This document shows, piece after piece, positions 1,504-13,258 of a stretch of DNA of 13,512 nucleotides. Source of the DNA: a virus (Duplodnaviria > Heunggongvirae > Uroviricota > Caudoviricetes); IMG/VR virus record IMGVR_UViG_2693429524_000013; one strand, 5' to 3'. The notes under the pieces were generated by a model. The model did not search any database. It worked only from the letters and a program-made list of their open reading frames with translations, and was not told where the DNA came from. How positions within the stretch are numbered: position 1 is the stretch's first letter; each line of letters starts with the position of its first letter. The translations under genes and the position numbers were made by a program.

Positions 1504-1699
1504 GCCTCCAAATTGGTCCACTTCTTTCGCTGGCTTAGCCAGGTGACTAAGGTCACCCCTTCGGGCGTGAGTGGATTTAGCTAAAGCTAAACCTGCAAAA
1601 GATGCAGGCAAAATAGAACTTATCGTTGCCCTGCTTAAAATCTGCAGAAAATACAGGGCAGTTATTCGTTAGAATCGCTTATAGCTCTTCCCGAGAGCG

Positions 1700-2047: not shown

Positions 2048-2062
2048 GGCCTTCGAAGAAGG
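2048..2062 (-). repeat. copy of the CCYTC-NNN-GARGG-CC mini-hairpin, immediately 3' of the capsid stop codon
   Basis: The minus strand reads CCTTCTTCGAAGGCC. This matches 14 of 15 positions of 6650-6664 (CCTTCTACGAAGGCC). Confidence 0.6.
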
Positions 2063-2065
2063 ACC

Positions 2066-3112
2066 TTATTTAGCCTTGGCTTTTGCCAGAGCAGCGGCGG
2101 CGGAGTTACTAACACTCACTTTAACCACAACTTCAGGCATCATGTTCATGAAAGCATAAGAGGATTCAATGAAGATTTCTCGTTTACCTCTGGACTCTTC
2201 CATATACATGAAAGCTTCACGTGCAGCGCCGTTTGCAAGCTTCAGGTTGCGAGCGCAAGGGCCGAAAAATTGAGTATAAACGCCCACCATATCGCCTAAC
2301 GCATGTGGCTGGAATTGTGGGACCAGATAAGCAGTATTCTCTGGCAGACTATCCATTTGCACCACACGCAGGGCTAAGCCCGGAATGCGGAAGGTCGGGA
2401 AGCCCGGCAGAATATCCTCAGGGAACATCAGGCCTTTGTCAGTGATATTTTGATTGCCGAACAACAGCACCTTACGGAGCAGTTCATCAGTCTGAATTGC
2501 AGCAAAGAGTTCAGCACGGCAGAACAGGGTGAAACCACGCAGAGCACGAACGACACCACGCTGTTTAACCTTGCTCAGTGCAACCAGGTCCTGCAGCTGT
2601 TTAAGGATATCTTTAGCTAAATCCACTTCTGAAGTGGTTTGCTGTGCGCCCAGCAGTTCGCACACATTCAGTTCTTTACCCTTGGTGAGGATAATTTTGT
2701 TCTCAAAGAGAGCAAGCTGGCGTGCTTCTTCGTGGGTCTGGCGTAAGCCTTCGCCAAGCTGAATAACACGACGAGCGGTTACAGACTCTAAATTCTCTTC
2801 GGAATCTTTGCCCGGAACGCGGATACCCTGCCAGTCAGAAGGATAAATAGCACTTGATGCGGCAGTGAATGCCATATCACCCGTGCCCGTTTCACGCTCA
2901 TCTGCGGTAATGGTCGCCATCTGTTCACCGTAGCGAGGATACTGACCGAAAGCAGATTGTTTCACCTGGCGAACTTTGTCATATTCAAATTTAAAGGTAT
3001 TGCACAGAGCAGTAGTGTTGAAGATATCCATTGCTGAAATAATCTGGTTATCCAGCGGGATGTCTTTAATCAGACCACACAGATCGCGAACTTCGAATTC
3101 TTTCTTAGCCAT
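2066..3112 (-). CDS. major capsid protein, lambda gpE-like family (348 aa from ATG 3112)
   Basis: AAGGAGG SD lies 6 nt upstream of ATG 3112; the track start at 3118 is a TTG. Size (~350 aa), position directly after a decoration-protein gene, and overall sequence character match the phage major capsid protein E family. A strong terminator lies downstream. Confidence 0.8.
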   Translation of the reverse strand: MAKKEFEVRDLCGLIKDIPLDNQIISAMDIFNTTALCNTFKFEYDKVRQVKQSAFGQYPRYGEQMATITADERETGTGDMAFTAASSAIYPSDWQGIRVPGKDSEENLESVTARRVIQLGEGLRQTHEEARQLALFENKIILTKGKELNVCELLGAQQTTSEVDLAKDILKQLQDLVALSKVKQRGVVRALRGFTLFCRAELFAAIQTDELLRKVLLFGNQNITDKGLMFPEDILPGFPTFRIPGLALRVVQMDSLPENTAYLVPQFQPHALGDMVGVYTQFFGPCARNLKLANGAAREAFMYMEESRGKREIFIESSYAFMNMMPEVVVKVSVSNSAAAALAKAKAK

Positions 3113-3123
3113 CTTCAACCTCC

Positions 3124-3459: not shown

Positions 3460-3584
3460 TTGATCACCTGCGATTTAAATTAACTCCCCTCAAAGAGTTC
3501 CGGTATAACCTCTCAAACCGCGACAGGCTCGGGCCGAAAAGTTATGCCGGAAATCTAAAGGGAAATTGATACAAGGAAAGGGAG

Positions 3585-3614: not shown

Positions 3615-3787
3615 TCCATATGGGGAAAACCAACAACAGTTGGCTGATAGTTCACAGTATGGTTACGGTTACTAGAGAGCACTATCACGAAAGGCACTCC
3701 CCCGAATCAGTTCAGGCTGCGGTCACATCAGCGGGGAAATACCTTTCGGGATAGCTACCCACACAGAAAACCCGCAAAAGAAAACTG

Positions 3788-4767: not shown

Positions 4768-5289
4768 ATGTTATTCCAGAAAGACAAAGAATCAGTAAAT
4801 AAAAGGCTTTTTAAAGAACTGGTAAAAATGTTCTTTCAGTACACTGCAGCGTTTTTGATAGCCGGGCCTTGGTTAATGGCTATCTGTTTTTACCCTGCTA
4901 CCTTGTTTATTGGCAGTAGCAAGTTCGGCGATGGCCCGTTTCATGTGGATATTGGTTTTATAGATTCTCTCCTGATCCGTCCTATAAATGCTGTTCTCAA
5001 TGCTTTCTACTTCCCAACTAGTCTAGAGGGGTGGGCGGTAACCTGGGGTGTTTTAGGCTTAGCATATGTATATTGGTTGGTTGGCTTTTTGTGGGGTGCA
5101 ATCTGTGCTCTCCTCGATATTGATACAGGATCAAGCCGTAGGAGTAGTGGTAATAATAGCGGAGCGGGTGTATATGCACACGTAGGTACCAGAGGGGTAA
5201 GTATCACCGCAGGTACCCGATTCGCTGGCGGCTGGCTGAGTATAGGCAAACGCGGCGTTAGTTGGAGAAAAAGCAAAAAACTGTTCTGA
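4768..5289 (+). CDS. integral membrane protein (173 aa) with a Gly/Ser/Arg-rich C-terminal tail reminiscent of DUF4236
   Basis: Two long hydrophobic segments are present: FFQYTAAFLIAGPWLMAICFYPATLFI and WAVTWGVLGLAYVYWLVGFLWGAICALL. The tail GTRGVSITAGTRFAGGWLSIGKRGVSWRK resembles DUF4236. A clean terminator follows. Confidence 0.75.
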   Translation: MLFQKDKESVNKRLFKELVKMFFQYTAAFLIAGPWLMAICFYPATLFIGSSKFGDGPFHVDIGFIDSLLIRPINAVLNAFYFPTSLEGWAVTWGVLGLAYVYWLVGFLWGAICALLDIDTGSSRRSSGNNSGAGVYAHVGTRGVSITAGTRFAGGWLSIGKRGVSWRKSKKLF

Positions 5290-5297
5290 CCTACCAG

Positions 5298-5318
5298 GGG
5301 GCCATCACGGCCCCTTTT
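5298..5318 (+). terminator. rho-independent terminator of the accessory cassette
   Basis: GGGGCC (5298-5303), loop ATCAC, GGCCCC (5309-5314), then TTTT. Confidence 0.8.
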
Positions 5319-5342
5319 CTATTTCCAGTCGCTATAGCTCCT

Positions 5343-5414
5343 GAGTAATTCCACTCCCTGAGGTCGTGATCAATTCCACACCCTACCCCCTGATCAATTA
5401 ACCCCTATTTAATG
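5343..5414. repeat. three ~24-bp direct repeats (TGATCAATTCCAC-type)
   Basis: AATTCCAC occurs at 5347-5354 and 5372-5379. TGATCAATT occurs at 5367-5375 and 5391-5399. A related 17-mer CCCCTGATCA(A/T)TTAACC occurs at 5387-5403 and 6284-6300. Confidence 0.6.
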
Positions 5415-5446
5415 GGTATTTAATGCCTATTTATTGATTTAATCCG
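5406..5446. repeat. AT-rich 11-bp phased repeats (TATTTAATG x3-4), resembling a DNA-unwinding element
   Basis: TATTTAATG at 5406-5414 and 5417-5425, TATTTATTG at 5428-5436, ATTTAATCC at 5438-5446. The period is 11 bp. Confidence 0.55.
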
Positions 5447-5514
5447 TTTTATGCCACAACCGCCCGGTTGACAGAGTAAGAGAGAGGGTGTAACCCTTTT
5501 TCGTAATACTAATG

Positions 5515-5530
5515 AAATCAATAAGTTAGC
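5515..5530 (+). repeat. 16-nt motif AAATCAATAAGTTAGC, copy 1 (matches IHF consensus WATCAANNNNTTR)
   Basis: Identical 16-mer at 13259-13274. The core AATCAATAAGTTA fits WATCAA-N4-TTR. Confidence 0.6.
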
Positions 5531-5584
5531 TTAATAGGCCTTTTCTCTATTTTTGTCAAATTTAACATACCCTAAAAAACTGCA

Positions 5585-5618
5585 AAATCTGGCTGCAAGA
5601 TTATCTGCAGCTGGATTT
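5585..5618 (+). other. 34-nt imperfect hairpin
   Basis: AAATCTGGCTGCA pairs with TGCAGCTGGATTT. There are 13 pairs, including two G-T pairs that are wobble only if the plus strand is read as RNA. Confidence 0.4.
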
Positions 5619-6520
5619 CTTACACCTCATTTTGTGGTATCACCCTGACTAGTTTGTGCATAAATTGAACAGTTTTTAACATTTCCTCTTCACCTGGTAA
5701 CCACACAAAAAGCTAAAAACGAGGCACAGATAATCTTAGAGGCCTATTTTCTTGTTATCACTCTGGAAACGTCGTAGAAGTGATTTTGATGAAAGGCGAC
5801 CTACCCTATTACACCCCCATTTTTTGTTATCACAATTGCATCCTGTGTGGCTATATGGCTATGTGCTGAAAGCGGTCTCGGGTGTGGGTGTCAGAAATAT
5901 CCATTAGCGGTATTTGAGCTTATGGGTAACTCGTCTGAGGTGCCAGGCAGGCGCTCCCCTACCTCCCTTTTTTCTTCTAACAATTCTCAAATATCACACC
6001 ACTGCCCACCACGTTGCTATTATGTTAATTCTTAAGCTTTGCTGTATGTTGTGCACATTATTTATTCAGGTGGCTGTACGTAAATTCTGTGCCCACTGAT
6101 CATGATTTTTAAATCAGATTTTGTAGTGCGGTTTCTTAGTGCTGATAAGATCTATTATGTTAAATGCAATTTTCCCAACCCTTCAAATCAATGACTTACA
6201 TGTAAGCATGCACTAACACCACACACAGCACATTAGACGTATAGATGGCTATATCCCACATATTTGATTGTTTTGTAGTCATTCCCCTGATCATTTAACC
6301 AGTATAGTTTGTTATCTGCAGACCACAAAATCGGAATTTACATCTGATTAACATAATCTGTTAGCATGATCACCATTACCCACACAACAATAACCCCATG
6401 TAAGCCTCTTCAGGCAATTTATCGGCGTGTTGGTGTGAACAGTCTTTCATGTTCTTTATGTATCAGTTGTCCTGTGTGGTGATTTGGTGGACTGCCCCAG
6501 GGGCCATACTTATGATGCCC

Positions 6521-6559
6521 GGTCAACATAGCTGTTGATAAAATCAACGGGTGTTGACC
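6521..6559. promoter_or_regulatory. twin palindromic operator-like sites
   Basis: TCAACA-tagc-TGTTGA (6523-6538) and TCAAC-gggt-GTTGA (6544-6557), with centres 20 bp apart. Outer arms GGTCAACA and TGTTGACC also pair. Confidence 0.45.
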
Positions 6560-6632
6560 TGCATATTTCCCACACATGAGAGGAAATCAGAGCAAAGAGA
6601 GAGGAGAGAGGTTTGTTAGTCACATATGGTGA

Positions 6633-6664
6633 TTTGAGCTCATCTCAAACCTTCTACGAAGGCC
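6633..6664 (+). repeat. two-hairpin module, copy A
   Basis: TTTGAG-ctcat-CTCAAA (6633-6649) abuts CCTTC-TAC-GAAGG (6650-6662), followed by CC. The 5' flank is TCACATATG. Confidence 0.65.
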
Positions 6665-6719
6665 TTTGCTAGTCAAAATCAAGTCACATTAGAGTCAAAT
6701 CAGATGCAATCAATCCCCC

Positions 6720-7051
6720 ACCTGTTGGGATTTCCCACATGTTCAACCATACACAGGAGCTAACCTGTTGGGATTTCCTACAACCCCTTTCAGTCATACT
6801 CAGGCACCACACCCCGGTAAATATTTCCCTACTACCCCGGAGAATTTCTCCGCACTACCTGTAAAGAATTTTCACACCTGTGTGTTTATACAATCATACT
6901 CTCCTGTTTTGCAGTCATTGCACCCATGATACACAGCCCTAACCTGTAAAATATTTTTACTACCCCGCCAATAATACGGCCCATACCTGTAAAATATTTT
7001 TACTACTACCTGTCAAAATCTTTTACTACTACCTGTAAAAATATTTGACAC
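6720..7051 (+). repeat. array of nine ~21-23 bp iterons, consensus ACCTGTAAAATATTTTTAC(TAC); candidate replication origin or centromere
   Basis: Units start at 6720, 6763, 6813, 6836, 6857, 6942, 6985, 7008 and 7031. The last three abut with exact 23-bp phasing. Each unit has an internal dyad. Confidence 0.8.
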
Positions 7052-7080
7052 TAATAGATAAAGTAATAGACCACACAATA

Positions 7081-7118
7081 GATCCCCCTAACCCCCCAGG
7101 GGGGAATGGGGAGGGATC
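7081..7118. repeat. G/C palindrome GATCCC...CCCCCC-A-GGGGGG...GGGATC followed by G-tracts
   Basis: C6-A-G6 lies at 7092-7104. Outer arms are GATCCC (7081-7086) and GGGATC (7113-7118). Downstream G-tracts (G6, G4, G3, G4) fit a loose G-quadruplex pattern. Confidence 0.6.
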
Positions 7119-7167
7119 AGAGAGTGGGGAAGGTTTTCTAAGGGAAAAGCTTAACCCACAAATGAAA

Positions 7168-7196
7168 GCCTAAAGAGCATTAGCGACTCTTTAGGC
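7168..7196 (-). terminator. 10-bp perfect hairpin, terminator-like on the minus strand
   Basis: GCCTAAAGAG (7168-7177) pairs with CTCTTTAGGC (7187-7196) across a 9-nt loop. The minus strand continues UUUCAUUUG. There is no U run on the plus side. Confidence 0.45.
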
Positions 7197-7208
7197 AATC
7201 TGTGTGTG

Positions 7209-7243
7209 GGGTGACAATGTATTCCATACATGACACGTCACCC
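7209..7243. other. nested hairpin
   Basis: Outer stem GGGTGAC (7209-7215) pairs with GTCACCC (7237-7243). The inner hairpin is ATGTAT-tcc-ATACAT (7217-7231). Confidence 0.5.
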
Positions 7244-7271
7244 TGCTCACATGTGTGGTCCACTTCGTGGA

Positions 7272-7310
7272 TTTGAGTTCACTCCGTAACTCAAACCCTC
7301 TACGAGGGCC
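7272..7310 (+). repeat. two-hairpin module, copy B (compensatory changes relative to copy A)
   Basis: TTTGAGTT-cactccgt-AACTCAAA (7272-7295) abuts CCCTC-TAC-GAGGG (7296-7308), followed by CC. It is preceded by CCAC-ttc-GTGG (7260-7270) and the flank TCACATGTG. Confidence 0.65.
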
Positions 7311-7356
7311 TTGTGTGGGGAGCGTAGTGCGATAGCACGTAGCTATATAATGTGGA

Positions 7357-7390
7357 GTCCGGATAAGAGACTTCTGTTTCCAATCCGGAC
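7357..7390. other. 8-bp perfect hairpin with an 18-nt loop
   Basis: GTCCGGAT (7357-7364) pairs with ATCCGGAC (7383-7390). Confidence 0.5.
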
Positions 7391-7410
7391 CGTTTAAGCG
7401 AGTGGTTTCT

Positions 7411-7436
7411 CGCGCGCGTGCACGCACACATATATA
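7411..7436. repeat. 26-nt perfectly alternating pyrimidine/purine tract (Z-DNA-prone)
   Basis: CGCGCGCGTGCACGCACACATATATA. It contains the 10-bp palindrome GCGTGCACGC (7416-7425). Confidence 0.7.
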
Positions 7437-7461
7437 AAGGATACACTCATAAATCGAAAAT

Positions 7462-7480
7462 AAGGCCCCTAAATGGCCTT
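7462..7480 (-). terminator. hairpin, terminator-like on the minus strand
   Basis: AAGGCC-cctaaat-GGCCTT. The minus strand continues AUUUUCGAUUU. Confidence 0.4.
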
Positions 7481-7616
7481 CTGGCTGCATTAACTAGTTT
7501 GAGTAGTGTAATTGCATTACCTGATGCTCAAATCGCGTTGTAGGGCCTCTTATGATGTTTGAGTTTAACACCCTCCAAAGTTTTAACAAAAAGTGCTCTC
7601 CCTCCATTGTGGGCCA

Positions 7617-7646
7617 TTGACAATCTTATTGCATAAATGCTATAAG
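7617..7646 (+). promoter_or_regulatory. strong sigma70 promoter P1 (rightward)
   Basis: TTGACA (7617-7622), 18-nt spacer, TATAAG (7641-7646), with TGc extended -10. The -35 context is TTGACAAT. Confidence 0.6.
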
Positions 7647-7744
7647 TTATTCTGTTTTTGACACGGTAGGGGACATTAATAATGCTTACCCCTTTGCTGT
7701 GGACTTGTTTGTACCTATAGCTCGCCTAAATGATAATGATTCCC

Positions 7745-7774
7745 ATTGACAATTGGTTGTCAATATGATAAGAT
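7745..7774 (+). promoter_or_regulatory. sigma70 promoter P2 (rightward) with an overlapping 20-bp palindromic operator
   Basis: TTGACA (7746-7751), 17-nt spacer, TAAGAT (7769-7774), with TGa extended -10. The operator ATTGACAA-ttgg-TTGTCAAT spans 7745-7764. Confidence 0.6.
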
Positions 7775-7936
7775 TATAGATAGTGGGAGAAACAGATCCG
7801 GAGGTCAACGTGGAACTGAGCGACGCTATAGCGATCATCAACCTGGCTGTAATGTGGTGCGGTGTTGCCTACATAGCCGGAGTAACTGCAATCGACAACC
7901 TTGAAGAAAAAATGATAGATAAATACAAAAAGATTG

Positions 7937-7965
7937 TTGACAATCTCGCAAATAGCTGATAAAAT
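7937..7965 (+). promoter_or_regulatory. strong sigma70 promoter P3 (rightward)
   Basis: TTGACA (7937-7942), 17-nt spacer, TAAAAT (7960-7965), with TGa extended -10. The spacer contains TCTCGCAAA (7944-7952), the core of the 18-nt motif. Confidence 0.7.
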
Positions 7966-8317: not shown

Positions 8318-9202
8318 ATGGCAAACAATAAACTGGGGGCACATTTCACCCCCATTTTTAAACGTTTTATCAAGTATAATTTTGAAAATCCAATTGCAAA
8401 AACTACAACAGGCAAAGAGAGATTTAATTTAAATGCGACGGAATTGATAATTTACGGGGAAATGGTTGGCTTTCATTTAAACGGCAAAGAAATATTCATC
8501 TCGGAGCAGACCTTAGCAGATGATTGGGATTTTTCAAGACCAACGATTATTAAAGCTATTAAATCTCTAGTAAATGCTGGGATTATTTCTAAAGATAACC
8601 GGAAAGGCAAATCTAACATTTACAAACTGTTAATTACACCTGAGCAGTTTGATAAAATGTGCGATGAGCAGGGTATTAAAACCTTAGACAGTGTGGGAGA
8701 CAGCAAAGAGGCACCTGCTACACAGGCCCAAGATAATCAACAGGAAGCCCCAAAACAAGCCACACAGCAGCCTGAAAAGCCCGAGGCAATGCAATCCCCT
8801 TCCCAACCTAAAAAAGAACACAGAGAACGCCGTAGAGACGCTGGCAAACGTGAAATAGATGAGCACGGTTATCCGATTCTGACAAGCGATGAAATGAATG
8901 CCAGATATAAAGTAATTCAGGCCGCATTTAAAGATCAGAAGAGAATTAAATTATCTGAATTGCGTGATACATTTTACGGGCCGGAGGTGATGGATAAAAT
9001 TAAAGGCACTATTCCTGATAAAATCTGGAAAGAGGAAGATTACTGGCACCTGACAGAGCAGGCCCTTAAGGTAGCTCAACACGTGGTTAAAAGAGGCAAA
9101 TCAATTATTATTGATTCTATTAGTCATGGCTATGATGCACCGAAAGAAAGGTTGTGGAACAACTGCAAGCTTGTAAAAGGCGAATTGACAATTACAAAAT
9201 AA
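8318..9202 (+). CDS. replication initiator candidate: N-terminal winged-HTH (lambda O / replisome-organiser-like), Gln/Pro-rich linker, C-terminal domain (294 aa)
   Basis: The N-terminal segment ISEQTLADDWDFSRPTIIKAIKSLVNAGIISKDNRKGKSNIYKL is a classic wHTH of phage/plasmid initiators. A low-complexity linker APATQAQDNQQEAPKQATQQPEKPEAMQSPSQPKK follows. The three-part architecture resembles lambda O. Confidence 0.6.
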   Translation: MANNKLGAHFTPIFKRFIKYNFENPIAKTTTGKERFNLNATELIIYGEMVGFHLNGKEIFISEQTLADDWDFSRPTIIKAIKSLVNAGIISKDNRKGKSNIYKLLITPEQFDKMCDEQGIKTLDSVGDSKEAPATQAQDNQQEAPKQATQQPEKPEAMQSPSQPKKEHRERRRDAGKREIDEHGYPILTSDEMNARYKVIQAAFKDQKRIKLSELRDTFYGPEVMDKIKGTIPDKIWKEEDYWHLTEQALKVAQHVVKRGKSIIIDSISHGYDAPKERLWNNCKLVKGELTITK

Positions 9203-11144: not shown

Positions 11145-13247
11145 ATGGCAATGAAGGAAGTCGCCAGACTAACAAACGTTATTTACTGGGATTCTGATAA
11201 ATCCTCCTGGCGAAAAGAAGTTAAACGGCTTGAGGATTATAAAAAATCCTGGAAGAAAGCCACCGACGATATAGCTAAAGCTGATTTTAAATCTAATCAG
11301 GCTGTGCTCAGAACACAAAGAACACGCGCTAAGGTGGAAGAGCAGATTGCCAGAGCACAGAAGAAACAACGTGCTCAGGCTGTCAGCCGTCTGACCGGGG
11401 GCAATAATCCGGAGCTCTCCTCTATGCGCAAGTTCTATCAGCAGCAAGCCAGAGAAGCCGCCAGACAACAAAAACTGTTAGATCGTAGTGTTGGAGATGT
11501 TCAGCACAGAAAAGCACGTGTAGGGGCCAACAGTGCACGAATCAGCAGCATGTTTGATGGATCCCTGGTTGCTCAGTTCCAATCCAGAATCCAGAGAGTT
11601 AATGCTGATTATGCTAAAGGGGCTATTAACCTGCAGACCTATAATCAGAAAATGGCTCGGCTCAGAGCTGAAATGAAGATGGCAACAGTAGAGGCCGGAA
11701 AATTTCAGAGCAGACTGGATAAACTGGCATCAGGTGCCAGCAAGGTGCATGACAACCTGGGCAAAATCAACTCCACACTAGGCAAGATAGCCATTGGCCT
11801 TACTGCCGCTGGCTGGGGTGTTCAGCGTGCTGTTAGTGGTGCTATGGGTAGCCTTGCAGATCGCAACAGTGCCTACTTCGGTTTGATGGCACAGAACAAG
11901 GATGATAAAGCCAAGACTGACCAGCAGATGGCCTACGTCAAAAGAATCTCTTATGACTATGGGATGGATCAGCGTGAGACCGAAGGCGGCTTTATGCGCT
12001 TTGCTGCAGCCACACCAAGCATAAAAGAGAAAGATAAGCAGGATCTCTTTGAGGCTATGGCGATTAAAGGCCGATCAGTGGGTGCTACTGCGGACCAACA
12101 GAACAGGGCTATCGTTGCACTAGGACAGATATATAGCAAGGGCGGTCGAGTGTATGCGGAAGAGCTTAAGGGCCAGCTGTCAGAAGCCCTGGCAGGTTCT
12201 CAGGTAGATTTCACTAAGGCCGCTATCGATGCCGGAATCATCAAGAAAGAGGAAGAATTTAATAAAGCCCTTGAAGATGGCAAGATCACCATGGACAAGC
12301 TTCTTCCTTCCCTAGTGAAAATCTGGGGTGCTGCAAAAGAAACTAAAGCTTTTGCTGAATCCATGAAACAGCCAGAAGTAGCAATGCAGCGCATGAAAAA
12401 CAGCTTTAACGAGCTGGCGATTCAGTTTATGGGTGTTGTGGATCCTGCCGATGGCGTTGTTAGCTTATCTGAATCTCTGATCTCCATCTTCGAAGACCTC
12501 ACCACTGATATGGACGGCAGCGGGAGCGCGGCAAAACAGTTTGGTGAAGCAGTCGGTGCTGCCATGCGGGAGATCATGTATTGGGTAGGCTTCGCTAAGG
12601 GCTATATCGAGGTCAAGGCTAAAGAGTTCGGCATGACCGGATCAGAGGTTGGCGAGCTTATCGGGAAACTAGTAGTCGGCTTAGCAGGTCTGAAAGTTAT
12701 TACCACACTGCTTTCCCCTCTAACCGGATTTGTTTCACTTGTCACTCAGCTGATAGCCTTGTTAGGCAAAATCCCTGGTATGAGCAAGCTTATGGCATCT
12801 GCCTCAGGTGGAACGGCAACAGGAGCAGCGGTCATCAGTGCAGGATCTAACGCTGAAAGAAGTTTCATTGATGGCAAGACGCAGGAAATGAGTAAGGAGA
12901 ACTCAAAACAGGGCGCTTTGTTTGAGCTGGGGAGATTTGTCAGCAATGCTGGCGCACTGTTCACACCTGGCGGTGATACTGGTCCTTTGTTCGATCAGGT
13001 CAAAGGCTGGTTTAATAAAGGGCCAACATTGACAGTAGACACTGGCATCAGACCAACACCAACAGGCGGCATAGCTATCCAGAATGGTGGATATCAACCA
13101 GTCCAAGTAAATGTAGCCCCACAAGGTGAGATTTCCGGCAAATGGGAGATAACCATCGATGAGGGGGGAATTGCCAGGGTGATCCAGAAGGAAGTCAGCG
13201 ATCAGTTGGATTGGAAAGCCACACAGGAATCTAACCAGCTTTTCTAA
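11145..13247 (+). CDS. tail tape measure protein (700 aa)
   Basis: GAGGTG SD is present. The N-terminus is coiled-coil-like. The segment ALGQIYSKGGRVYAEELKGQLSEALAGSQVDF matches the conserved tape-measure domain core. Hydrophobic segments are present (LVVGLAGLKVITTLLSPLTGFVSLVTQLIALLGKIPG), and the C-terminus is Gly-rich. Confidence 0.85.
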   Translation: MAMKEVARLTNVIYWDSDKSSWRKEVKRLEDYKKSWKKATDDIAKADFKSNQAVLRTQRTRAKVEEQIARAQKKQRAQAVSRLTGGNNPELSSMRKFYQQQAREAARQQKLLDRSVGDVQHRKARVGANSARISSMFDGSLVAQFQSRIQRVNADYAKGAINLQTYNQKMARLRAEMKMATVEAGKFQSRLDKLASGASKVHDNLGKINSTLGKIAIGLTAAGWGVQRAVSGAMGSLADRNSAYFGLMAQNKDDKAKTDQQMAYVKRISYDYGMDQRETEGGFMRFAAATPSIKEKDKQDLFEAMAIKGRSVGATADQQNRAIVALGQIYSKGGRVYAEELKGQLSEALAGSQVDFTKAAIDAGIIKKEEEFNKALEDGKITMDKLLPSLVKIWGAAKETKAFAESMKQPEVAMQRMKNSFNELAIQFMGVVDPADGVVSLSESLISIFEDLTTDMDGSGSAAKQFGEAVGAAMREIMYWVGFAKGYIEVKAKEFGMTGSEVGELIGKLVVGLAGLKVITTLLSPLTGFVSLVTQLIALLGKIPGMSKLMASASGGTATGAAVISAGSNAERSFIDGKTQEMSKENSKQGALFELGRFVSNAGALFTPGGDTGPLFDQVKGWFNKGPTLTVDTGIRPTPTGGIAIQNGGYQPVQVNVAPQGEISGKWEITIDEGGIARVIQKEVSDQLDWKATQESNQLF

Positions 13248-13258
13248 TATTGTGATCT

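Follow-up and report, generated by a model that had tools for sequence, protein, structure and literature searches.

Several kinds of short hairpin-forming sequence have been described in bacteria and their phages. The put sites of phage HK022 are two-stem RNAs of about 70 nt, fixed and required in the sense strand, that lie between an early promoter and the terminators that they suppress, and act in cis on the beta' subunit of RNA polymerase. In repetitive extragenic palindromes (REPs), a single imperfect hairpin bears a conserved GTAG head; they occur in hundreds of chromosomal copies and are paired with a RAYT gene. Hairpins of single-stranded DNA are the signals at the virion RNA polymerase promoters of phage N4, at the ends of IS200/IS605 insertion sequences and at integron attC sites, and the C-GNA-G loop is that of DNA mini-hairpins of the d(GCGAAGC) type, which are very stable. 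Rickettsia palindromic elements (RPEs), reportedly described by Ogata et al. in 2000, are said to be chromosomal sequences of 100-150 bp that lie in-frame in protein-coding genes and add a peptide segment, and the PeSL sequences of T4-type phages, reportedly described by Arbiol et al. in 2010 as 'mobile regulatory cassettes', are said to carry an early promoter and to flank shuffled genes. Miniature transposable elements with inverted repeats (MITEs) and other small mobile sequences of bacteria are treated in two reviews (PMC2229807 and PMC11602168). In this study, we analysed a stretch of 13,512 nt from IMG/VR virus record IMGVR_UViG_2693429524_000013 (hereafter the window), in which a hairpin module is present in two copies, A and B. 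A sequence-only reading of the window had proposed that these copies might be put-like antitermination RNAs.

Copies A and B belong to a family of cassettes of about 50 nt, built of three directly abutting hairpins. The cassette is repeated, structurally constrained, polymorphic for presence or absence and dispensable, and it is common to a phage satellite and its probable helper, a phage of the rV5 type. We put at somewhat under 60% the probability that it is a non-autonomous, hairpin-dependent mobile cassette exchanged between satellite and helper.

Anatomy and insertion footprints of copies A and B

Both copies lie on the plus strand. Copy A (6620-6664) is composed of the hairpins H0 (TCAC-ATATG-GTGA, 6620-6632), H1 (TTTGAG-CTCAT-CTCAAA, 6633-6649) and H2 (CCTTC-TAC-GAAGG, 6650-6662), followed by CC, and copy B (7259-7311) of H0 (TCCAC-TTC-GTGGA, 7259-7271), H1 (TTTGAGTT-CACTCCGT-AACTCAAA, 7272-7295) and H2 (CCCTC-TAC-GAGGG, 7296-7308), followed by CCT. 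Against the covariance model of the family they score 29 and 35.6 bits, respectively. The sequence-only reading had delimited a two-hairpin module at 6633-6664 and 7272-7310; these coordinates are correct and its hairpins I and II, which correspond to H1 and H2 above, are real, but the modules have three hairpins and the abutting 5' hairpin H0 had been overlooked. It was also right that hairpin I is two pairs longer in copy B than in copy A and that a T:A pair of hairpin II has changed to C:G: the window contains the 23-mer common to both, CTCAAACCYTCTACGARGGCCTT, exactly two times (0/200 shuffles), and the two differences between these copies are the two sides of one pair. The 5' flank TCACAT(A/G)TG, which had been taken as common to both copies, is not homologous, being part of H0 and of the insert in copy A and, in copy B, target DNA that is present in insert-free genomes.

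Both copies are insertions relative to sister genomes. At the copy A site, cassette-free genomes carry GGTTTGTTAGTCAAAATC unbroken, and the window has a 42-nt insert and then a second TTTG(C)TAGTCA, so that the footprint (6612-6675) consists of the insert between the direct repeats TTTGTTAGTCA (6612-6622) and TTTGCTAGTCA (6665-6675). This site is empty in 19 of the 21 aligned genomes and filled only in the window and in L011. The footprint of copy B (7252-7318) has TGTGTGG at 7252-7258 and again at 7312-7318, around a 46-nt insert; the empty allele, with a single TGTGTGG, is found in L006 and L009, in L005 the site is occupied by another variant of the cassette, and the copy B sequence itself is absent from all other family genomes. 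Alignments of the window with its relatives break exactly at 6622/6665 and at 7258/7312. Hairpin units also recombine between cassettes: copy B has an H1 and an H2 of the copy-A type but shares its H0 with the cassette at 7154 in L005, and it looks like a recent intragenomic paste. A search of copy B with its flanks against phages returned chance-level short matches only. Neither copy is followed by a U-tract (copy A continues with CCTTTGCTAG and copy B with CCTTGTGTGG), and a scan for intrinsic terminators reports neither.

The heptamer TGTGTGG/CCACACA is found 20 times in the window, against about 1.6 occurrences expected, for example at 3759, 3786, 4276, 4333, 5701, 5844, 6219, 6380, 6473, 6570, 7071, 7203, 7252 and 7312. 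It brackets cassettes at 7200-7320 and is clustered in the non-coding region of rV5 as well. As a promoter element it was rejected, there being no extended consensus around the 20 copies.

Distribution of the cassettes in the family genomes

Copies were located in 26 family genomes in two ways, by a scan for perfect triple hairpins and by a separate sequence-similarity search, and about 80 cassettes were found at about 18-20 sites and in both orientations. The strict triple hairpins alone number 79 in 22 of the genomes, versus 0.3 +/- 0.5 in shuffles, which excludes chance. By its general plan, a cassette opens with a short leader, continues with three perfect hairpins that abut directly, and closes with a short trailer, about 50 nt in all; H0 has a 5-bp stem and a 3-nt loop, H1 a 5-8-bp stem, and H2 a G+C-rich stem of 3-5 bp with a 3-nt loop, followed by CC. 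Two subfamilies were distinguished, type T, in which H1 is TTTGAG, TTTAGC, TTAAGC or CTTAGC, and type G, which reads CTGGC-TTA-GCCAG / GTGAC-loop-GTCAC / CCC-TTC-GGG.

In window coordinates, the sites are at about 1530, 1950-1990, 2049, 4065, 4175, 4715, 6620, 7154, 7209-7317, 7409, 7565, 8782, 10540, 10930, 11000 and 13245, and the main hotspot is 7200-7320, where two cassettes sometimes stand in tandem. They are placed between genes, directly past the tape-measure and capsid stop codons, in a 5' leader, within genes and even inside another cassette. Insertion within genes keeps the reading frame at two sites, the Rep gene of L004 and the gene of a 61-aa protein in L003, L005, L007 and L008; the latter gene measures 186 nt without a cassette and 237 or 249 nt with one, the protein growing from 61 to 78 or 82 aa, and the same peptide frame (PEGVT-I/V-GHL...) is used in both genes. 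As an explanation of orientation, a replication-strand logic was discarded, orientations being mixed on either side of the iteron array of the non-coding region.

More than 12 sites have both a filled and an empty allele, the inserts being 48-56 nt long; the junctions carry direct repeats of 2, 3-4, 4, 6, 7, 8-9, 10 or 11 nt at different sites. In the alignment of 21 genomes, about 15 of the 50 indel blocks of 30-130 columns are cassettes. Each genome holds 0-6 copies, some have a single cassette far from the origin, and the complete 13.9-kb contig L016 has none, from which it follows that the cassettes are dispensable. The idea that type G is an essential cis site in every genome was likewise dropped, seven complete genomes being without it.

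Conservation of structure and folding

The covariation alignment and the covariance model were built from 28 distinct cassettes. All 12 of the 12 pairs of H0 and H1 vary on both sides, and 96.7% of cells pair, a percentage inflated by the perfect-hairpin scan that supplied most of the aligned copies; among the copies recovered by BLAST similarity alone, 76 of 80 have perfect stems. The covariation score is 0.888 versus 0.24 +/- 0.03 in shuffles (none of 500 reached it), and sliding the partners destroys the signal. Paralogues with the same stems (GTCCT / CTTAGC / CCC) at 1987, 4710 and 10943 differ in their loops only. G-U/G-T pairs make up 2 of 334 cells and G-C to C-G flips are many, which argues for a constraint on a DNA palindrome, both strands of which fold, rather than on an RNA helix.

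Folding pointed the same way. With DNA parameters the minimum-energy structure on both strands is exactly the three abutting hairpins (z = -3.2 to -4.2; -3.3 for copy A and -4.2 for copy B), and with RNA parameters copy A does not stand out (z = -1.4) and copy B folds preferentially into another structure, a rod. Because G-U/G-T pairs are scarce and the three-hairpin form of copy B is the minimum with DNA parameters only, single-stranded DNA is favoured over RNA, and we infer that the feature under selection is a single-stranded DNA fold. Most of the 3-nt loops read GNA on one strand and are closed by C-G, as in CCC-GAA-GGG, CCTTC-GTA-GAAGG and TCCAC-GAA-GTGGA. The sequence-only reading had taken structure-preserving variation as the mark of a functional RNA or single-stranded DNA element; that the single-strand fold matters is borne out by the covarying pairs, the covariation score and the BLAST-recovered stems, although the specific roles proposed for it found no support.

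Two further explanations of the stems were set aside. Inverted repeats bound as operators by a protein dimer do not fit, as the arm sequences covary and are not conserved, and extrusion of cruciforms from duplex DNA was judged unlikely for arms of 5 bp. A search of the whole window against Rfam at E <= 1 gave three weak, irrelevant matches, none of them at the modules.

Other cassettes in the window

A third full cassette, of type G, and a cassette that it splits had escaped the sequence-only reading. The type G copy (1530-1565, plus strand; CTGGC-TTA-GCCAG, GTGAC-TAAG-GTCAC, CCC-TTC-GGG) lies in the 5' leader of a gene for a Dit-like tail protein and is nested inside the H0 loop of the other (1517-1608, plus strand), whose H0 arms are TCCAC (1517-1521) and GTGGA (1571-1575), with H1 at 1576-1591 (TTTAGC-TAAA-GCTAAA) and H2 at 1592-1608 (CCTGC-AAAAGAT-GCAGG). 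The DNA fold reproduces the nesting, and the covariance model matches the split cassette at 22.6 bits on the minus strand. In relatives, the H1 of a cassette contains another inserted hairpin, GCTC(T/C)C-AGCCC-GAGAGC, with GCTAA repeats around it (L022/L023 at the equivalent of about 1987; L003 10143-10188), a second case of nesting, which hints that single hairpin units can move too.

A lone hairpin of the H2 type (2048-2062, minus strand; CCTTC-TTC-GAAGG, then CC; RNA fold z = -2.85) had been noticed past the major capsid stop codon; it is real, at a distance of 3 nt and not 4. It corresponds to an indel of 22-24 nt that is missing in 5 of 21 genomes and is represented by a full three-hairpin cassette in L003. 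At 5909-5940 and 3510-3536, where degenerate relatives had been supposed, there are no copies: these stretches are not indels, their arms do not pair in relatives and the covariance model does not match them. In an overlapping patch of 18 nt (5915-5932), three sharply different alleles of equal length (TGAGCTTATGGGTAAC, AATACCCGTCAGATGT and AATATCCGTCGGAGAT) are found among genomes otherwise about 95% identical, and the patch looks like a replaced specificity segment.

Cassettes in rV5-like phages and elsewhere

The type G cassette with its flanks is 86-93% identical to intergenic DNA of about 55 records of the Vequintavirinae type, and the window copy with flanks (1523-1568) is identical to the cassette of rV5_ev168 at 43 of 46 positions (93%). 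In the rV5-like phages type G has a single place, directly beside an iteron array in a region of 2.5 kb that is free of genes and separates convergent gene blocks, and it is present in 6 of the 6 non-coding regions examined (L032 was among the phages checked). A type T cassette also occurs in rV5_ev168, bracketed by a CCTGTAGGTC repeat, and is missing at the same spot in phage Murica. Outside the non-coding region, a hairpin scan and the covariance model found no convincing cassettes in the 138-kb rV5_ev168 genome. IMG/VR gave one cassette match, on an rV5-like contig, and zero matches to the type T pattern. In 5,426 complete E. coli genomes, no cassettes were found on the chromosomes, and all 7 places are on satellite plasmids.

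The non-coding regions of the satellite and of rV5 have several motifs in common, namely a 24-mer (23/24), a dif-like site and an excess of TGTGTGG. The 24-mer TTCTTCTAACAATTCTCAAATATC, in the 5942-5995 region of the window, is identical at 23 of 24 positions to the opposite strand of the rV5 non-coding region (L026 3645-3715), where the neighbouring motif GCCAGGCAGGCGCTCC recurs too, and this suggests that the non-coding region of the satellite is a rearranged mimic or relative of that of the helper. A dif/cer-like Xer site lies at 6136-6165 (AGTGCTGATAA-GATCTA-TTATGTTAAAT), and its XerD arm is identical to that of E. coli dif; a closer dif-like site (GGTGCGCATAA-TGGGTA-TTATGTTAAAT) is present in the rV5-like non-coding region (L026 3497-3524), which is odd in a virulent phage.

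The genome that carries the cassettes

The window is an entire circular, plasmid-like E. coli element of about 13.5 kb. It is about 90-94% identical, at a coverage of 79-89%, to complete circular E. coli 'plasmids' of 13.2-13.7 kb, and it also matches seven plasmids among the 5,426 complete E. coli genomes. It encodes a major capsid protein (2066-3118, minus strand), the Dit-like distal tail protein, a tail-completion-like protein, a tape measure protein of 700 aa (11145-13247), a Rep/O-like protein with HTH_36/DnaD_N domains (8318-9202) and a small resolvase-type HTH protein of 86 aa, the sole recombination-related match among the satellite genes. No terminase, portal, sheath or tube genes were found in the gene content of the window, and no transposase, HUH, tyrosine recombinase, RAYT or Y1 gene among the satellite genes. 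The capsid family is restricted to E. coli contigs of 13-14 kb: the protein has no match in phage records, and capsid-based locus searches of a genome contig collection and of IMG/VR gave nothing. The tape measure protein shares about 26% identity with its counterparts in rV5-like phages (Vequintavirinae). Judged by its gene content and the DNA links described above, the element looks like a plasmid-borne phage satellite, with rV5-like (Vequintavirus) phages as its probable helpers. This E. coli plasmid satellite is apparently undescribed; the searchable literature holds nothing specific on an rV5 satellite or on triple-hairpin or palindromic phage cassettes.

A 2.5-kb non-coding stretch (5290-7800), for which megablast against phages gave no match, holds an iteron array at 6720-7050. 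The array (repeat families D1, D2, D4, D10 and D11) lies outside the cassettes and is flanked by copies A and B; presumably it is a plasmid origin served by the Rep/O-like protein. It comprises five 20-23-mers that resemble TACCTGTAAAATATTTTTAC, with ACCTGTTGGGATTTCCCACA and ACCCCGGTAAATATTTCCCTACT present twice each, and the number and order of iterons differ strongly between relatives. Between the iterons and copy B, a palindrome of G and C runs (CCCCCTAACCCCCCAGGGGGGAATGGGGAGGG, 7084-7115) and a terminator-like hairpin with an 11-bp stem (7168-7196, minus strand) are both kept in several relatives. An open reading frame at 4768-5289, downstream of the HTH_7 gene, has orthologues of 173 to 239 aa that differ by internal indels and has no Pfam or PHROG match. 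Two related records are composite: L003 (NZ_CP043822.1, 39.6 kb) is a head-to-tail trimer of the satellite element whose monomers differ, in that the structural region of one is truncated or rearranged and some of its genes are frameshifted, and L024 carries the element (13452-21041) on a 30-kb contig beside aminoglycoside phosphotransferase (APH) genes, a DDE transposase and a TetR-family gene, which suggests either that the element forms a cointegrate with resistance DNA or that the contig is misassembled.

Possible origin and roles of the cassettes

If the cassettes are mobile, the family would have multiplied in a single group of E. coli phage satellites, plasmid-borne and of 13-14 kb, and the single-stranded hairpin fold would be what lets a cassette be copied and pasted. 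Pasting might proceed by hairpin-promoted template switching or by microhomology-guided repair during helper-driven replication and recombination, a copy-and-paste route that is favoured because no transposase is encoded and the junction repeats vary in length; a structure-specific nuclease or other enzyme is a candidate for an alternative route, and a classical transposase is unlikely. Effects on the satellite, such as protection of RNA 3' ends or those that come with proximity to the origin, would be secondary.

Several points weigh against such mobility. How the cassettes are mobilised is pure inference, the satellite encodes no transposase, HUH or tyrosine recombinase, and junction repeats of 2-11 nt are unlike the fixed target duplications of transposases. 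Without an outgroup, many of the indels could be deletions instead of insertions; the family genomes are closely related, so their copies are not independent events, and the paired percentage of the alignment is inflated, as stated above. Some copies are partial: past the capsid gene there is an H2 alone, and the window Rep gene retains CCCGAGG as a remnant. Finally, type G is fixed beside the iterons in all the rV5-like phages examined, a hint that it has a function at that place.

Such a function is the core of a different view, to which we give a low but appreciable probability: the cassettes would be cis-acting DNA sites, read as extruded or single-stranded hairpins by helper machinery (a T7-like replisome or primase-helicase, an endonuclease VII-type junction nuclease and the packaging machinery are candidate readers), the satellite would mimic a signal of the helper's origin region, and the iteron-proximal copies A and B would be functional, with the others as by-products. 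The fixed place of type G beside the iterons in 6 of 6 rV5-like phages, the position of A and B on either side of the satellite iterons with the main hotspot at 7200-7320, the motifs common to the two non-coding regions, the several EndoVII-type nucleases and the primase-helicase encoded by rV5, and the DNA-type, Watson-Crick-only stems all agree with it. It fits poorly with a complete satellite genome that is cassette-free and others whose single copy is far from the origin, with the occurrence of copy A in only 2 of 21 genomes and of the copy B variant in only one, and with copies of either orientation within coding regions and 3' of genes; since the stems are not conserved in sequence, nothing but their structure could be recognised. 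Less probable still is a role in RNA stability or processing, in which clusters of hairpins would protect 3' ends past the capsid and tape-measure genes or structure 5' leaders, and would have been spread by recombination because they are useful. Such a role would suit the most widely occupied site, directly past the tape-measure stop codon (13242-13249; at least 14 of 26 family loci), the site past the capsid stop codon, a variant (CCCTC-TTCG-GAGGG) that in the mRNA sense has a C(UUCG)G tetraloop and the location of the 1530 copy in a 5' leader, 20-30 nt upstream of a Shine-Dalgarno sequence, and the helices would form in RNA as well. Against this stand the mixed orientation relative to local transcription (about 6 sites in one sense and 3 in the other), the lack of predicted promoters that read into A or B, the near absence of G-U pairs despite heavy covariation, and the RNA folds, copy A being no more stable than shuffles (z = -1.4) and copy B preferring a rod; with no U-tract after them, the hairpins are not intrinsic terminators.

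The proposal that A and B are put-like antitermination RNAs, which like HK022 putL/putR would modify RNA polymerase in cis, is already contradicted and retains hardly any credibility. What speaks for it is a superficial anatomy, adjacent hairpins that occur twice in a large, regulatory-looking non-coding region. Three hairpins in about 45 nt compare with some 70 nt for put; most sister genomes lack the insertions (A is in 2 of 21, and the B site is empty or holds other variants); cassettes of the family occur in genes, past stop codons and on both strands; the best sigma-70-like promoters of the rightward operon (7620-7965, plus strand) lie downstream of copy B; one family genome is without any cassette; and no Rfam match was obtained.

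Extending the favoured reading of a mobile cassette, we suggest only tentatively, as an idea that could well prove wrong, that the cassettes represent an undescribed class of hairpin-only mobile elements of about 50 nt, which would move both within and between a virulent rV5-type phage and its plasmid-borne satellite by a copy-and-paste process that depends on single-stranded DNA hairpins and needs no transposase of their own, through structure-specific nucleases of the helper or template switching at hairpins. Such elements would be able to target hairpin loops and to persist in genes as in-frame peptide inserts, and may double as structural tags for the helper machinery near the origin. Should the favoured reading be correct, some 26 near-identical genomes of 13.5 kb with 0-6 copies offer a natural system for the transposase-less spread of very short palindromic DNA. 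The cassettes are also a molecular fingerprint that ties an E. coli plasmid satellite to rV5-like virulent helpers, phages of a kind that serve in phage therapy and biocontrol. They account for a substantial part of the indel variation in the family, and insertions within genes are liable to be misread by annotation pipelines and comparative analyses. A more general caution is that compensatory changes, when seen in a repeated hairpin, are not on their own sufficient evidence of a regulatory RNA.

Comparison with known systems

Like the put sites of HK022, copies A and B are adjacent stem-loops present twice in a phage-related regulatory region; unlike them, they vary in position and orientation, are dispensable, differ in size and behave as members of a dispersed family. 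The C-GNA-G loops of 3 nt on one strand and the 5-bp stems recall d(GCGAAGC) mini-hairpins and other hairpin signals in single-stranded DNA, where the fold and not the sequence would be recognised, yet no N4-type RNA polymerase, Y1 transposase, integrase or flanking consensus of N4 promoters, IS200/IS605 ends or attC sites accompanies the cassettes, and their orientation is not strand-consistent.

The small mobile palindromes of bacteria come closer. REPs and the bacterial interspersed mosaic elements (BIMEs) resemble the cassettes as short palindromic repeats in many copies, mostly intergenic and often past stop codons, with the hairpin kept by compensatory change (12/12 pairs here), and both may be handled as single-stranded DNA hairpins. 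The cassettes differ in having three abutting perfect hairpins, in residing on a satellite and a virulent phage with no chromosomal copies in 5,426 E. coli genomes, and in lacking a RAYT/Y1 gene. With MITEs they share non-autonomy, shortness, presence/absence polymorphism and flanking direct repeats, and sharing between parasite and host genomes is possible for both; on the other hand, they have no terminal inverted repeats, their ends (for example the leaders GTGGGA and TTCA and the trailers CCTGT and TGTCT) not being inverted repeats of each other, their junction repeats of 2-11 nt are not a target-site duplication of fixed length, their length of about 50 nt is at or under the usual MITE size, and the satellite has no transposase gene. 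To our knowledge, no insertion sequence is known as their parent. Like RPEs, they can enter reading frames without disrupting them, as in the L004 Rep gene and the gene of the 61-aa protein, but RPEs are unrelated in sequence, 100-150 bp long and chromosomal, and most cassettes are non-coding. With PeSLs they have in common that short repeats of a promoter/stem-loop type stand in virulent myoviruses at recombination junctions or mosaic boundaries, where short flanking homologies could drive insertion; no promoter is evident in the cassettes, and here the cassette itself is the moving unit. Taken together, the cassettes lack defining features of REPs/BIMEs, MITEs, RPEs and PeSLs alike, share one or two properties with each, and can be classed as a variant of small mobile palindromic repeats.

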